Shown: one piece after another, positions 302 to 4,939 of the stretch
How the letters are laid out: each line of letters opens with the position of its first letter
Numbering within the stretch: position 1 is the stretch's first letter
UHGV virus genome: UHGV-0438775
From: a virus
DNA: 5,176 nt
Strand: one strand, 5' to 3'
Notes under the pieces: generated by a model
Databases searched by the model: none
What the model saw: only the letters and a program-made list of their open reading frames with translations
What the model was told of the DNA's origin: nothing
Program-made: the position numbers and the translations under genes

Positions 302-340
302 AGCCTGCTTTTGGACTAAACTTATATATCATTCTAGTAA

Positions 341-1279
341 ATGCAGTGTGTTAATCAAATACAAGTATTGAACCCAAAGACGGGTAAATTTATAAAAGTC
401 CCTTGCGGTACTTGTTACGCTTGTCAAAGCAACAAACGGTCATCTTGGATGTTTCGTAATACAGTTGAACTACAATATTCACAGAGTGCGTTCTTTTGTA
501 CCCTCACGTACAATGATACTGCGCTGATGGGTCTTCCGTATCACGGTACATCTAATTTGCGAATGCCCTTGAAATATCATTATCAACGCTGGTTGAAACG
601 TCTTCGCAAGGCGTTACAGCCTGCCAAGGTTCGGTATTTCTTATGCCACGAATATGGTGACGAATCGTTCCGCCCTCATTATCATGCTTTGCTATATCTA
701 GATACTGATATATCTCTTACAGATATGCGTTGTCTTATATCTGATACTTGGAGGTATGGTAATATAACCTGCGATTTTGTCTCTCCTGCTCGTATACATT
801 ATCTGACTAAGTACGTGACTAAACAGTTTCGTAACGTCAAAAGCTCTGGACGGTCTGTAGATTATATATTTAACCATACTTGGGATAATAGAGATTTACA
901 GCATCGCTATATAGTTGAGTACTACCTTAAGAAGTTTTCTTTTGTTGTAGCTAGTCAAGGCTTAGGTTGTCAGCTCCTGCGTGAGCCTGCTTTTATACGT
1001 TGGTTTTGGGATCACCTCATAGTTGGTGAATCCTATCCGAATTATGTTATTGGAGGACGCTCGTTTGCTCTACCTCGTATATACCTGCGTAAGTTGGTAC
1101 CCGAGTTGTGGAGAGATGAGATTTCCCCCGATATATCGCCCGAGGCTTATTCAGCCCGATTATCTGATCTTGCGTCTGACGCTAATCTCACCGTAAAACA
1201 GTATATAGAAAATGCGCGCTATATACAAGACAGAAAGTCTCAAATCATCCGCGCTAATAACAAAAAATCCCCTTTGTAA
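341..1279 (+). CDS. VP4: Microviridae VP4 replication initiator (rolling-circle Rep, HUH endonuclease superfamily)
   Basis: The 312-aa ORF begins at the first ATG after an in-frame TAA (338-340). An N-terminal Cys cluster PCGTCYAC (aa 21-28) is typical of gokushovirus VP4. RCR motif I is FCTLTY (nt 494-511). Motif II is the HUH triad RPHYHALLY (nt 671-697). Motif III is YLTKYVTK (nt 800-823), with the catalytic Tyr pair YxxKY. The gene sits upstream of the structural genes, as in Gokushovirinae. Confidence 0.9.
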   Translation: MQCVNQIQVLNPKTGKFIKVPCGTCYACQSNKRSSWMFRNTVELQYSQSAFFCTLTYNDTALMGLPYHGTSNLRMPLKYHYQRWLKRLRKALQPAKVRYFLCHEYGDESFRPHYHALLYLDTDISLTDMRCLISDTWRYGNITCDFVSPARIHYLTKYVTKQFRNVKSSGRSVDYIFNHTWDNRDLQHRYIVEYYLKKFSFVVASQGLGCQLLREPAFIRWFWDHLIVGESYPNYVIGGRSFALPRIYLRKLVPELWRDEISPDISPEAYSARLSDLASDANLTVKQYIENARYIQDRKSQIIRANNKKSPL

Positions 1280-1281
1280 CT

Positions 1282-1410
1282 ATGAGTTTTATCAAACCGA
1301 AACTAGGATTCTTCGCCAAGTTGCGTAAGTTCCGAATCCCTATCATCTTGCTACTTGTAGCTATTGGAGTGCTTTGCATCTCCTTTGGCTGGTCTGTAAT
1401 CTTAATCTAA
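1282..1410 (+). CDS. Small single-pass membrane protein, 42 aa (basic N-terminus plus C-terminal TM helix); candidate lysis or membrane accessory protein
   Basis: This ORF is not in the supplied track because it is below the length cutoff. ATG 1282-1284 lies 2 nt after the Rep stop, and the TAA at 1408-1410 lies 6 nt before the next ATG. The translation is MSFIKPKLGFFAKLRKFRIPIILLLVAIGVLCISFGWSVILI. It has a basic amphipathic N-terminal segment followed by about 22 hydrophobic residues. It exactly fills the Rep-ORF132 gap on the coding strand of an otherwise gapless genome. Its start context AACTATG is identical to that of VP1. Confidence 0.4.
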   Translation: MSFIKPKLGFFAKLRKFRIPIILLLVAIGVLCISFGWSVILI

Positions 1411-1416
1411 TCTAAT

Positions 1417-1815
1417 ATGGAAACTTGTAAGTATAGAAATAACCCGTTTAATATACGGTATAATGCTTCCAATAATTGGAAAGGTCAAACAGAACCTAAG
1501 AACGGATTCTGTCAGTTCTCAGAATTGAAGTACGGTGTTCGTGCTGCTTTCCTGCTTGTCTTTAACTATCGTAATTTGCACGATGCGACTACTCCACGTG
1601 ATATAATACGATATTGGGCGCCAAAGGAAGACGGTAATGATACGTCTGCTTATATAAACTTTGTCGGACAGCTCATTAACGAAGATGAGCCAATAGATAC
1701 TACTTTGGAGTATCTGATTCTGCTTTATAGTATGTGGAAAGTAGAACAAGGATGGGTTCCCAGCCTTTGGGAGTTTGCTACACTTTTGAATGCGTCACTA
1801 ATAGAAGATCTATAA
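1417..1815 (+). CDS. Hypothetical protein, 132 aa, acidic, in the VP5 position between Rep and VP1 (function unknown)
   Basis: A clean ORF on the coding strand with tight spacing on both sides (6 nt upstream, 3 nt before the VP1 ATG). It has about 17 acidic and 12 basic residues, so it is not a basic DNA-binding protein of the J/VP8 type. It contains W/G/aromatic-rich segments (NPFNIRYNASNNWKG, GVRAAFLLVFNY) suggestive of a folded domain. It ends with a TAA and is in the same frame as VP1, separated from it only by TAA-ACT. Confidence 0.6.
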   Translation: METCKYRNNPFNIRYNASNNWKGQTEPKNGFCQFSELKYGVRAAFLLVFNYRNLHDATTPRDIIRYWAPKEDGNDTSAYINFVGQLINEDEPIDTTLEYLILLYSMWKVEQGWVPSLWEFATLLNASLIEDL

Positions 1816-1818
1816 ACT

Positions 1819-3720
1819 ATGCCAAATCTAACTAAGTATTCGCTTGACCACGAGGTTCGTTCAAGCTTTGAGATGGGTCAATTGATACCCTTTCTCTGCC
1901 AGGAAGTAGTTCCAGGTGATAAATACCGTGTGCAGTCTAGTACACTTGTGCGCCTACAGCCTATGTTATCGCCACTGATGCACCGCCTTGATTATTATCA
2001 GCGGTATTATTATGTGCCTTATAGGTTGCTTATACCTCACTATGAGCAATTACTTACCGATCCTGATAGTAAGTATGTAGTGCCATCTATGGATAAGTAT
2101 CTTCAGTTTAAGGCGAAGAAGTTTAAGGATTTGTTCGCTGAAAAACCACTGCTAGAATATTTTGGTCTTGCTACATCTAATGGCGAAGCCGATCCTACTA
2201 ATGTTCTTAAGGATCTTAACGCTACTCCCCTACTCGCTTATTACCTCATATATAATCACTATTATATGAGATCTGATCTAGACAAGCGATATGTTGACCA
2301 GCTTCGCCCAGAGAATTTTGAATCTGCTGAACTGCGCAAGTATATAGGCGATGTAATGAATGTCAATGAAGGACTTGACTATTTTACCAGCGCTAAGACC
2401 TCTACTCAGTATGGTAATATGGTGCAACTTGATATGAACGGTGATAATACTATTACTGTACCCGAGATGCGTCTTGCTGAGCGTCTGCAATCGTTTAGAG
2501 AGCGGTTACTGCGTGTTGGTGGTAAGTATGTGAATTATATTAAGGAGTTCTTCGGAGTTGAACCTTTGGACGCTAGAGTTCAAATTCCTAAGTATCTCGG
2601 TGGTGATTCATATGTCCTTAACGTCTCTGATGTTGACCAGACAGCTCCCTCAGATCTTGGTTCGGTTGGTGAGAGTTACGGTAAATCTGTATCGGTTAAT
2701 CGCACGGGTCAGATTCAGTACGATGTTTATGAGCATGGCTTAATTATTGGTCTTCACTTTGTGCGTCCTCGTCCGTCAAATATTGGTGGTTGCCCTAAGT
2801 TGTTTACCCGCCGTAATTACTTTGATTTCTTCAATCCTCATTTTTCGGCTCTTGGTTATCAAGAGATAGAGGGTCGTGAGTTGGACGTTACTCGCCCTAA
2901 AGATGAAGCGTTTGGATATGTTCCTAGATATGATGATTATAGATATGGTAATGATGTTGTTAGCGGTGATTTCCGTAGGTCTCTTAATTTCTGGCATTTG
3001 TCGCGAGATATATCCAAGGAGAGATTATCAGTTCCTTTCGTGACTTGCCGTCCAGATCCTCGTATATTTAGTTATGAGGGTGAGAACGGTAGAGTTGAGT
3101 TATATTTCTTCTCAGCTGAAGCGGATCGTTTTTTGAAGAACGGTGGATCAAAACGTATTGTTTTAGAAGGTTTTCTTTGGATGCCCGTAAATTCTGTATC
3201 TGTCGGTTCTAAGGTTAAACTTGCGTCTTATATTCATACAAATATAGGTGATGCTTCTAAGGCTTATTTTGTTGATACAGTTGAGATTAAAAGTTTATTG
3301 CCTAGAGAATCTACCGCTATTTTACCTGTGATTGATATTAATCGGTCTGAGACTAAATTTGAGTATGCTCATGAACCCGTAGAATTGACTACTGTTGATA
3401 AGGTTTTTTCTATAGAGATAGGAGATGATGAATTTGTTTCTTCCGATGTGCTTGTAGCAACTTGTGGTGATAAGGTTGGTACATTTGTAATTTGTGATGT
3501 TAGACCTAAGGTAAAGGTACATCCTGGAGAATCTGCCGATGATTTTCAACAGATGTTGCAAGAGATTGATCAGTTGCGTGTTGTAGATGGTTGTGTTGCT
3601 GGCTTTGCTAGTTATCATAAATCTGGGCACCTAGAGAACAATCACGTGTTGTCAGTTACTTATAATAATGTTGACGTACTTCGTCCGCTGGCTCGTTATG
3701 ATGGTAATGTACTTAGATAG
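1819..3720 (+). CDS. VP1: Microviridae VP1 major capsid protein (F-like jelly-roll)
   Basis: The 633-aa ORF is the largest in the window. Its N-terminus, MPNLTKYSLDHEVRSSFEMGQLIPFLCQEVVPGDKY, matches the hallmark gokushovirus VP1 start (basic-Asn-x-Phe ... G-x-L-x-P ... VLPGD). Its length is in the VP1 range. It is followed 8 nt later by VP2. Confidence 0.92.
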   Translation: MPNLTKYSLDHEVRSSFEMGQLIPFLCQEVVPGDKYRVQSSTLVRLQPMLSPLMHRLDYYQRYYYVPYRLLIPHYEQLLTDPDSKYVVPSMDKYLQFKAKKFKDLFAEKPLLEYFGLATSNGEADPTNVLKDLNATPLLAYYLIYNHYYMRSDLDKRYVDQLRPENFESAELRKYIGDVMNVNEGLDYFTSAKTSTQYGNMVQLDMNGDNTITVPEMRLAERLQSFRERLLRVGGKYVNYIKEFFGVEPLDARVQIPKYLGGDSYVLNVSDVDQTAPSDLGSVGESYGKSVSVNRTGQIQYDVYEHGLIIGLHFVRPRPSNIGGCPKLFTRRNYFDFFNPHFSALGYQEIEGRELDVTRPKDEAFGYVPRYDDYRYGNDVVSGDFRRSLNFWHLSRDISKERLSVPFVTCRPDPRIFSYEGENGRVELYFFSAEADRFLKNGGSKRIVLEGFLWMPVNSVSVGSKVKLASYIHTNIGDASKAYFVDTVEIKSLLPRESTAILPVIDINRSETKFEYAHEPVELTTVDKVFSIEIGDDEFVSSDVLVATCGDKVGTFVICDVRPKVKVHPGESADDFQQMLQEIDQLRVVDGCVAGFASYHKSGHLENNHVLSVTYNNVDVLRPLARYDGNVLR

Positions 3721-3728
3721 TTATAGCT

Positions 3729-4763
3729 ATGGATCCCGTAACAATTGCAGGTCTTGCAGGTGCAGGCGCTAGCCTCTTCGGTGGTCTCGTTAATAATGCT
3801 TGGGCAGATGCCCGTAGTGATAAACAATGGCATCGCACTTTGTACATGCAGGACAAAATGAATGCTTATAATGCGCCCGTTGCTCAGATGGAGCGACTTG
3901 CACAAGCTGGATTAAATCCTAATCTTGTGTACGGTAATGGCGGTAGCGTTATACAGTCCGCTGGCGGTAATGCTCCGAATCCTCCTAATACTGCTCCTAT
4001 TGATACGCAGGGAGTGTTACAGATGGTGCAGACTGTTGTAAACGGTATGCTTGAAAAGGATAAGATTCAGGCTGAAAAGGAGATTTCAGAAGCTAAGAAT
4101 ACCACGACTAAAGAGGTTACTCAGATGCAGAATACGACTTCGGAGCGTAATGTTGATGTTACTACTCAGTCTAATGAAAAGGTTGCTACTGAACGTAATG
4201 AGACTGAAAAGGAGATTAACAAAGATCGGATTCAGTCTAACGAAAAGATTGCTTCTGAGAATCGTGCTGAGAATGCTCGTCAGTTTGATTTGTCGTTTGC
4301 TCATCAAGTTTCTGTTGATAATGCTCGTATCGCAATTGATCGGAGCTTAGCTAATTCTACTATTGCTCTGCATTCTTCTCAGATTCGGTTGAACAATTTG
4401 TCTGCTAATCTTCAAGAAGCTATACAGCCGTATTTGGTTGATAAATCTAAGTATGAGGCATTGTCTTTGGCTTTTTCGTATGGTAATGATAGGCTTAATC
4501 AGTTTTTATCTTTACCACAGTATATTGGAGAAGGTGAATTAGGTGCTGTTTTTGATGAGGCTGGTTTGCCTCGTCCTGCTGGTTATCAGCTTAAGATGAT
4601 AGCAGATTTTCATAATCAACAGTTTGAGCTATGGAAGAAAGTTGGTGAAGCAGATTATGAGCGTGCTGATGCTGCTGCTTGGTATGCTGGTTGGAATGCT
4701 TTCTTTGGCGCTGCTTCTGGTCCGTTTAAGATGGGTATTACAGCTGCTTCAATTATTAAATGA
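3729..4763 (+). CDS. VP2: Microviridae VP2 minor capsid / DNA pilot protein
   Basis: This 344-aa ORF lies directly after VP1. It has a Gly/Ala-rich N-terminus (IAGLAGAGASLFGG) and the conserved pilot-protein block NAYNAPVAQMERLAQAGLNPNLVYG (NSP..Q..R.K.AGLNP.L.YG type). The central region is a low-complexity E/K/N/T-rich predicted coiled-coil with an internal duplication. The C-terminus is Ala/Gly/Trp-rich. Confidence 0.85.
   Translation: MDPVTIAGLAGAGASLFGGLVNNAWADARSDKQWHRTLYMQDKMNAYNAPVAQMERLAQAGLNPNLVYGNGGSVIQSAGGNAPNPPNTAPIDTQGVLQMVQTVVNGMLEKDKIQAEKEISEAKNTTTKEVTQMQNTTSERNVDVTTQSNEKVATERNETEKEINKDRIQSNEKIASENRAENARQFDLSFAHQVSVDNARIAIDRSLANSTIALHSSQIRLNNLSANLQEAIQPYLVDKSKYEALSLAFSYGNDRLNQFLSLPQYIGEGELGAVFDEAGLPRPAGYQLKMIADFHNQQFELWKKVGEADYERADAAAWYAGWNAFFGAASGPFKMGITAASIIK
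4069..4281 (+). repeat. Internal imperfect direct duplication within the VP2 coiled-coil region
   Basis: ctgaaaaggagatt occurs exactly at 4070-4083 and at 4202-4215, 132 nt (44 codons) apart. cagtctaatgaaaaggttgctactgaacgtaatgag (4157-4192) is repeated imperfectly as cagtctaacgaaaagattgcttctgagaatcgtgctgag (4231-4269). At the protein level, AEKEIS...QSNEKVATERNE is followed by TEKEIN...QSNEKIASENRAEN. Confidence 0.55.
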
Positions 4764-4801: not shown

Positions 4802-4939
4802 ATGAATTTAATGCATTTGTTGACTTACGTCGTTATGGTTGCTATGTTCGTTGGTGCTATATGGGTTATTGCGACATTGACCCTTAGTATAATTCGAAAG
4901 ATACGTAACTTCAATAATCATGGAAAAACGAAAATATAA
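4802..4939 (+). CDS. Small single-pass membrane protein, 45 aa (N-terminal TM helix plus basic C-terminal tail); candidate lysis protein (amurin-like)
   Basis: This ORF is not in the supplied track. ATG is at 4802-4804 and TAA at 4937-4939. The translation is MNLMHLLTYVVMVAMFVGAIWVIATLTLSIIRKIRNFNNHGKTKI. It has about 24 hydrophobic residues and then an R/K-rich tail, the same layout as phiX174 E (N-terminal TMD, basic C-terminus). It fills the VP2-VP3 gap and overlaps the VP3 start by 20 nt. Its start context TATAGCTATG is a 10-mer identical to that of VP2 (3722-3731). Confidence 0.4.
   Translation: MNLMHLLTYVVMVAMFVGAIWVIATLTLSIIRKIRNFNNHGKTKI

Follow-up and report, generated by a model that had tools for sequence, protein, structure and literature searches.

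The 5,176-base window, by which we mean the whole stretch of DNA analysed here, is a complete circular microvirus genome, and the gap between its replication gene (Rep) and the gene for a predicted peptidoglycan hydrolase (ORF132) is occupied by a genuine gene of 42 codons, ORF42, which is under purifying selection. From its genomic context, the product of ORF42 is best explained as acting with ORF132 in a compact lysis module, of which it would be the membrane component, a tentative explanation whose chances we place slightly below even. All the features involved are collected in Table 1.

Table 1. Features of the microvirus genome around ORF42, with coordinates in the window.
Feature	Position	Strand	Description
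Rep	341-1279	+	VP4-like rolling-circle initiator (PF23343, phrog_942); upstream neighbour of ORF42
Rep stop/ORF42 start junction	1277-1284	+	TAActATG; spacing of 2 nt here
ORF42 CDS	1282-1410	+	ATG, 42 codons and TAA; kept in 22 variants, whose substitutions follow a coding pattern
ORF42 residues 1-18, basic juxtamembrane region	1282-1335	+	invariant K7, G9, F10, F11, R15, R18; predicted helix 6-16
ORF42 residues 19-42, single predicted transmembrane helix to the C-terminus	1336-1407	+	invariant P20, L23-L25, F35-G36-W37, L41; predicted helix 18-41
ORF42 stop/ORF132 ATG junction	1408-1419	+	6-nt spacer; 4, 6 or 7 nt in relatives
ORF132	1417-1815	+	predicted Enc34 / PM2-P5-type (PHA02564) peptidoglycan hydrolase domain; proposed partner of ORF42
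Major capsid protein (VP1)	1819-3720		Phage_F
Pilot protein	3729-4763		
ORF45	4802-4939	+	second miniprotein; predicted N-terminal transmembrane helix, basic C-terminal tail
VP3-like ORF	from 4920 across the window ends to ~43		

The ORF listing confirms both the coordinates and the 42-aa peptide (MSFIKPKLGFFAKLRKFRIPIILLLVAIGVLCISFGWSVILI) that an earlier note on this DNA had given for ORF42. The TAA of Rep ends at 1279 and is followed, after 2 nt, by the ORF42 ATG at 1282, while 6 nt separate the ORF42 stop codon from the ORF132 ATG at 1417. The two junctions and the 137-nt gap between Rep and ORF132 (1280-1416) are as the note had described them, and so is the start context, AACTATG, common to ORF42 and VP1. 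The spacing at the Rep junction, which is reduced to 1 nt in three relatives (L001, L012 and L013), suits coupling by termination and reinitiation; the frame of ORF42 relative to Rep varies. A frameshift fusion of Rep and ORF42 is ruled out by this spacing of 1 or 2 nt, and a read-through fusion of ORF42 and ORF132, which share a frame in the window, is excluded by the variable length of the spacer between them (Table 1) and by the variable stop codon.

The reality of ORF42 as a gene follows from its conservation in sequence variants, its fixed length, its dN/dS values, the codon positions at which it varies and the fact that its frame is the only open one. In random sequences of the same composition, 137 nt accommodate an ATG-to-stop ORF of 42 codons or more in about 0.2% of cases (20,000 simulations). 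Eleven related loci (L001-L006 and L012-L016) have a 42-codon ORF42 in the same slot, and a 44-codon form is found in a distant sub-lineage (L028/L029 and the prophages L032-L034), in which Rep is 76% identical, ORF132 only 60% and ORF42 still 58%. The two forms align with an hhalign probability of 98.9% at this 58% identity. Together with the database proteins P0001-P0009, the related loci provide 22 distinct peptide variants from free as well as integrated microviruses, each located in this slot and 42 aa long, or 44 aa in the one sub-lineage. Variable alignment columns are distributed over the three codon positions as 22/13/34, with the third position dominant; pairwise dN/dS ranges from 0.04 to 0.43, with dS often above 1 or saturated, and the synonymous excess is significant (Fisher p ~1e-5). 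At the stop position, TAA, TAG and TGA are all seen among relatives. The ORF42 frame alone is open in all genomes, and stops interrupt the other five frames in most of them, which rules out a minus-strand or other-frame gene at this place. The description of ORF42 as unannotated also holds, since none of the five related GenBank genomes annotates it. In two relatives (L014, 1042-1170, and L015, 1054-1182), ORF42 combines a window-type N-terminal half, MSFLKPKLGFFAKLRKFRIP, with an L004-type transmembrane half, …AVVVVCVAFGWFSFL, a chimaeric structure that suggests recombination inside the gene.

The product joins a basic N-terminal part to a predicted transmembrane helix at its C-terminus, as the earlier note had recognised. 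Residues 1-18 have a charge of +6 in the window and of +6 or +7 across the variants, and acidic residues are missing from this part in all of them. Residues 19-42 are uncharged and very hydrophobic, with a mean Kyte-Doolittle value of 2.72 in the window and of 2.6-2.8 across relatives, and no charge is found beyond residue 18 in any of the 22 variants. Fourteen positions are invariant throughout this set, six of them in the basic region and eight in the helix (Table 1). An AlphaFold2 model (mean pLDDT 77.6) predicts the two helices with a break at residue 17. According to the positive-inside rule, which is established knowledge, ORF42 would be a tail-anchored protein with its N-terminus inside and its C-terminus outside, essentially devoid of a periplasmic part. 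With its 42 residues it would have to insert post-translationally; membrane insertion, as well as any effect on the membrane, is what we infer for it. The strong conservation of the motifs GFF, R..R.P and FGW would also be in line with a specific binding partner, as opposed to generic pore formation.

As far as sequence comparison goes, ORF42 belongs to no described family. It has no significant match in Pfam, PHROGs, NCBIfam or PADLOC, an exhaustive profile search of 1.84 billion protein representatives returns its own cluster only, and a word-indexed protein search returns only close variants. The match to Pfam DUF5989, a family of proteins of about 49 aa with no known function, is below threshold (13.7 bits, against a gathering threshold of 27 bits; E=0.069) and places ORF42 residues 1-36 on positions 1-37 of the 49 in the profile.

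The most informative neighbour of ORF42 is the enzyme gene downstream, which two of the five GenBank relatives list as 'hypothetical' and the remaining three leave unannotated. ORF132 has no Pfam match. It matches phrog_873, 'endolysin' (E=2.5e-23), and the catalytic domain of the phage Enc34 endolysin, PDB 7Q47, with an E-value of 1.9e-6 when searched alone and of 9.8e-15 as a profile of microviral homologues. This structure is also the only significant Foldseek match of the ORF132 AlphaFold model (pLDDT 80.7; E=1.4e-5, TM-score 0.63-0.68). Residues W67, Y79 and E110 align with the W79/Y95/E131 triad proposed for Enc34 and PM2 P5 (PMC8943055; PMC9502842), and E110 is invariant. Judged by profile, predicted fold and the invariant Glu110, ORF132 is a peptidoglycan hydrolase domain of the Enc34/PM2-P5 type; the Enc34 domain itself degrades peptidoglycan in vitro (PMC8943055). 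ORF132 presents a PHA02564-type catalytic domain, but no C-terminal membrane domain in the same polypeptide. It has neither a signal peptide nor a transmembrane segment (its best 19-residue hydrophobic window reaches 1.01), so that a route across the membrane would be needed. Domains of this type are also found in virion proteins that act in entry (PM2 P5, Gp29 of 9vvp and the epsilon15 head protein), so a role of ORF132 in release is itself presumed, and it may not be a lysis enzyme at all. With a pI of 4.8, ORF132 is unusually acidic in comparison with its homologues from dsDNA phages (pI ~9). A charge complementarity between ORF132 and ORF42 is uninformative, because the enzymes of the ORF42-less prophages L024 and L027 are acidic as well (pI 5.06 and 5.81).

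Where a conserved tail-anchor miniprotein is followed, 6 nt on, by a signal-less member of the Enc34 family, the simplest interpretation is a lysis unit of two genes. In such a unit, the basic N-terminal helix of ORF42 would lie at the cytoplasmic face, while its lone transmembrane helix would end at the periplasmic leaflet. Late in infection the protein would build up in the cytoplasmic membrane and would permeabilise or depolarise it, retain ORF132 at the membrane, or both; ORF132, made without an export signal, would thereby reach the peptidoglycan. ORF42 might be the hole-former itself or an accessory to the ORF45-type protein described below, and its functional link to ORF132 is deduced from their arrangement. 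Among the functions suggested in the earlier note, a lysis-related role is the best supported, by virtue of the adjoining Enc34-type hydrolase gene, a clue that the note had missed. In favour of the lysis module are the reality of the gene, its layout, the presence of a muralytic neighbour lacking a membrane route of its own, the recurrent pairing of this enzyme family with membrane modules, the constant company of ORF132, without which ORF42 is never seen in three sub-lineages, and the lack of an identified lysis gene in such Bacteroidetes proviruses (PMC3091885). Against it stand the sister lineages that have the enzyme and lack ORF42, the position of ORF42 outside the holin classes, the more holin-like character of ORF45, the conserved motifs that fit a specific partner and the occurrence of ORF132-type domains in virion entry proteins.

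In its possible mode of work, ORF42 may be nearest to the C-terminal anchors of Enc34-type endolysins. Enc34 ORF39 of a Hafnia phage and M4Lys of the Salmonella phage BSPM4, whose catalytic domains belong to the same family as ORF132, carry a C-terminal transmembrane domain, without which cells are neither lysed nor harmed (PMC8943055, PMC7143992). The ORF132 homologue gp10 of the Flavobacterium ssDNA phage phiCjT23 (L031, 1453-2007) terminates in '...AKKKFKFNYLIIPVLLFFYTVYSVTV', where a basic stretch leads into a single transmembrane helix that runs up to the stop, and is thus the fused counterpart of the ORF42 layout; similarity between ORF42 and this tail is undetectable at the sequence level (hhalign probability 0.2%). 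In these three proteins the membrane part is fused C-terminally, whereas ORF42 is a separate gene upstream of the enzyme gene. Besides, Enc34 and M4Lys have two predicted helices, with the opposite predicted orientation in M4Lys, whereas ORF42 has one. It is conceivable, though rather doubtful, that ORF42 serves an Enc34-type endolysin as a membrane module supplied in trans, in the shape of a free-standing tail-anchor; in this 'split' form, ORF42 and ORF132 would make up a minimal, holin-independent lysis system of two genes in an ssDNA microvirus. Stand-alone homologues of ORF132 (133-144 aa) exist and lie, in phage 9g, beside genes for a holin and a spanin. Two unannotated phage contigs from the human gut (L038, 1961-2524, and L037, 1789-2304) encode, after such stand-alone homologues, proteins that combine a lipobox-like N-terminus with a transmembrane helix at the C-terminus, a layout that resembles that of a unimolecular spanin. 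No consistent pattern of small membrane ORFs was found beside the P5-like genes of distant microviruses (L019-L022 and L036).

Holins and pinholins offer a second term of comparison. Like them, ORF42 is a small phage membrane protein with at least one transmembrane helix and an endolysin gene adjoining it (at 6 nt), and it would likewise open the way to the cell wall for a cytoplasmic enzyme. Holins have a hydrophilic, highly charged C-terminal domain, which ORF42 lacks in 22 of 22 variants, and they vary fast in sequence; ORF42, at 42 aa and with only one helix, is shorter than known holins and more conserved than holins usually are. None of the curated holin models in Pfam, PHROGs and NCBIfam matches it. 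A comparable association of genes is known from PM2, in which a P5-type enzyme co-occurs with the very small membrane lysis factors P17 and P18, too short and divergent for homology searches (PMC9502842). Both PM2 and the virus described here are phages with small genomes that combine a P5-fold enzyme with tiny membrane proteins, although PM2 is a dsDNA, membrane-containing virus and its P5 is a virion protein.

The tiny membrane proteins of other small phages, MS2 L and phiX174 E, show no homology to ORF42. The earlier note had called the layout MS2 L-like, and the resemblance stands insofar as both proteins run from a basic N-terminus to a hydrophobic C-terminus. It does not extend to the sequence: L-like lysis proteins have a conserved Leu-Ser dipeptide after the hydrophobic domain, whereas ORF42 has IS, VS, FS or VA, none of them invariant, and matches no sequence model. 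In phiX174 E, an N-terminal transmembrane helix with an essential proline precedes a basic C-terminal part, and the gene is overprinted on the scaffold gene. The polarity of ORF42 is the opposite, it occupies a slot of its own without overlapping its neighbours, and the invariant Pro20 is its sole reminiscence of E. In contrast to the situation of MS2 L and phiX174 E, the genome in the window has its own muralytic enzyme.

Farther downstream, the genome encodes another miniprotein, ORF45, whose gene shares its last 20 nt with the beginning of the VP3-like gene. Its N-terminal transmembrane helix and basic C-tail give it the polarity opposite to that of ORF42, in agreement with the earlier note. 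An ORF45-type gene is present at the same position in nearly all related lineages, while sequence types of this gene turn over fast and are reassorted against the remainder of the genome. Its match to the NCBIfam model holin_2 is weak, with an E-value of 0.02 that falls far short of the cut-off. Both layout and distribution would make ORF45 a better candidate for a classical holin than ORF42, which is limited to a sub-clade and far more conserved. The note had suggested that the two miniproteins form a complementary pair; such a putative pair is possible, and the distributions of its members differ, since the ORF45 type is near-universal and fast-varying and ORF42 is restricted to the sub-clade.

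In the comparison with relatives, which the note had proposed as a check, a short hydrophobic ORF is conserved, as the 22 variants show, but it is absent from the prophages L024/L025 (Rep 63% identical) and from L027/L035 (56%). In these lineages the enzyme is kept and the ORF42 slot is empty: Rep is followed at once, after a 10-nt gap or with an overlap, by an enzyme version of 127 aa; the enzyme is therefore not universally dependent on ORF42. In L026 (Rep 57% identical), the slot contains a 35-aa ORF, MKRTLFKLSLFRVSCLLVIIAIVLLLVAVAVLLFV (2028-2135), that overlaps the end of Rep by 20 nt. As a homologue of ORF42 this ORF is only weakly supported (hhalign probability 17%), and having the same layout it is better regarded as a positional analogue. 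In three ORF42-less genomes (L024, 8107-8247; L027, 1167-1280; L035, with the same ORF as L027), an ATG-started ORF of 46 or 37 aa lies in the +1 frame of the 127-aa enzyme gene, always at the same offset (+154) and with an ORF42-like basic N-terminus and a transmembrane segment to the C-terminus, and in most of the genomes that carry ORF42 this frame is broken by stops. The overprinted ORF may be meaningless, as it is seen in two independent lineages only and T-rich alternative frames often give such ORFs by chance.

The relatives also inform on the life style of the virus. Five GenBank genomes from human samples, two of them from vaginal secretions, are 78-86% identical to the window over most of its length, and related microviruses are also integrated in bacterial contigs, next to genes for a Fimbrillin_C protein, pyrD/pyrK-like proteins and UvrA. 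From these neighbours and from the literature, the host would belong to the Bacteroidales. The virus is temperate: the prophage in L006 is bounded (3757-3769 and 8888-8900) by the direct repeat AACTCATTCTAGT, and that in L032 (~5898 and ~10950) by ACATAATTCCCATTCTG. Short flanking direct repeats and integration without an integrase are also the mode described for the Bacteroidetes microvirus proviruses (PMC3091885). A scan of genome contigs with ORF132 found no close prophage, only distant matches. In the circular genome, the repeat core, CATTCTAGT (window 330-338), is found 3 nt upstream of the Rep ATG. With the integration site just 5' of this ATG, the non-coding region of ~300 nt is shifted to the far end of the prophage and parted from the series Rep-ORF42-ORF132-VP1, a displacement that may amount to repressor-free silencing of the operon. 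Prophages with ORF42 (L006, L032 and L033) lie beside pyrD/pyrK-like genes and have no HTH_3-type repressor-like gene; those without ORF42 (L024, L025, L027 and L035) lie between rlmN-like and DUF4301 genes and have one. The non-coding region, which is kept in the L006 prophage at ~80% identity, contains nested inverted repeats of G/C runs (41-156; e.g., 41-63/134-156 and 64-73/112-121) and two further 10-nt hairpins (167-232). The inverted repeats may be an origin or a recombination structure. A search of Rfam for structured RNAs gave no match. Sigma-70 promoters and intrinsic terminators occur at chance level in a scan that is ill-suited to Bacteroidetes.

Several other explanations of ORF42 have to be weighed against the lysis module. 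ORF42 could be an accessory lysis regulator, that is, an antiholin or timing factor that binds the ORF45-type hole-former through its transmembrane helix and delays or tunes triggering. Accessory lysis regulators are usually confined to sub-clades, as ORF42 is next to a near-universal ORF45 type with a holin-like layout and a weak holin_2 match; the opposite topologies of the two proteins and the intramembrane motifs of ORF42, which suit helix-helix binding, agree with such a role. A specific pairing is, however, hard to reconcile with the fact that ORF42 is 88% identical between the window and L001 while ORF45 is quite different, and ORF42 is, to our knowledge, unlike the antiholins encoded by separate genes, so that we consider a regulator unlikely. 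A membrane function outside lysis, which could be superinfection exclusion, interference with the host membrane or the tethering of Rep or of replication, would be in keeping with a temperate virus, as small prophage membrane proteins often exclude related phages, and the start of ORF42 1-2 nt past the Rep stop suggests that both are co-expressed. We regard it as improbable nevertheless. Since integration parts Rep-ORF42-ORF132 from the preceding non-coding region, expression in the prophage is not obviously to be expected; PADLOC has no match for ORF42, the sister lineages replicate without it, and the one argument for anchoring replication to the membrane is the adjacency to Rep.

Distinctly less probable is that ORF42 is a single-gene lysis protein ('amurin') that blocks a membrane-embedded enzyme of cell-wall synthesis, in the way phiX174 E blocks MraY. 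The virus is a microvirus, and a small protein with an invariant proline at the start of its transmembrane helix and FGW inside it suggests a specific intramembrane target, but the polarity is opposite to that of E, the gene is not overprinted, a muralytic enzyme is already present in the genome and ORF42 is absent from sister lineages. The basic N-terminus and hydrophobic C-terminus are also those of phiX174 J, and the size falls in the range of 25-40 aa of the J/VP8 proteins of Microviridae, to which ORF42 would then belong as the missing small basic DNA-binding protein that enters the capsid with the genome. This is very unlikely: J/VP8 proteins are rich in Arg and Lys and encoded by a core gene, whereas ORF42 has only 6 basic residues (K+R) in 42 and, missing as it is from L024/L025 and L027/L035, does not count as a core gene, its hydrophobic part is a full transmembrane segment of 24 residues instead of a short tail, and ORF132 intervenes between it and the capsid gene. 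For both of these explanations the group leaves a vacancy, as no homologue of E is known in it and none of J/VP8 has been found in Bacteroidetes microviruses (PMC3091885). Finally, the very tight junctions on both sides, and the sister lineages in which Rep is joined straight to the enzyme gene, would be consistent with a regulatory upstream ORF or a spacer that couples the translation of Rep and ORF132 and has no function as a protein. Purifying selection at the amino-acid level, with 14 residues invariant among 22 variants and synonymous sites saturated, makes this extremely unlikely.

The membrane component of a lysis module is thus the explanation with which ORF42 is best approached, and it bears on a gap in the biology of these viruses. 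Bacteroidetes proviruses of this kind have yielded no identified lysis gene (PMC3091885), nor has one been assigned in Bacteroidetes-associated microviruses, and the release of microviruses other than phiX174 is largely obscure (PMC3091885, PMC3394797). The viruses of this group occur in human vaginal and other human-associated samples, and ORF42 has been missed by all current GenBank annotations of the clade. The locus represents a concrete and easily testable candidate lysis cassette, formed by ORF42 and the putative Enc34-type enzyme, with a second miniprotein elsewhere in the genome. For Enc34 and M4Lys, the question is how a C-terminal membrane segment helps the N-terminal enzyme toward the cell wall, and here the corresponding parts would be naturally separate. 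If the split form is true, it would be a first candidate for the way in which non-phiX174 microviruses of Bacteroidales lyse their hosts.
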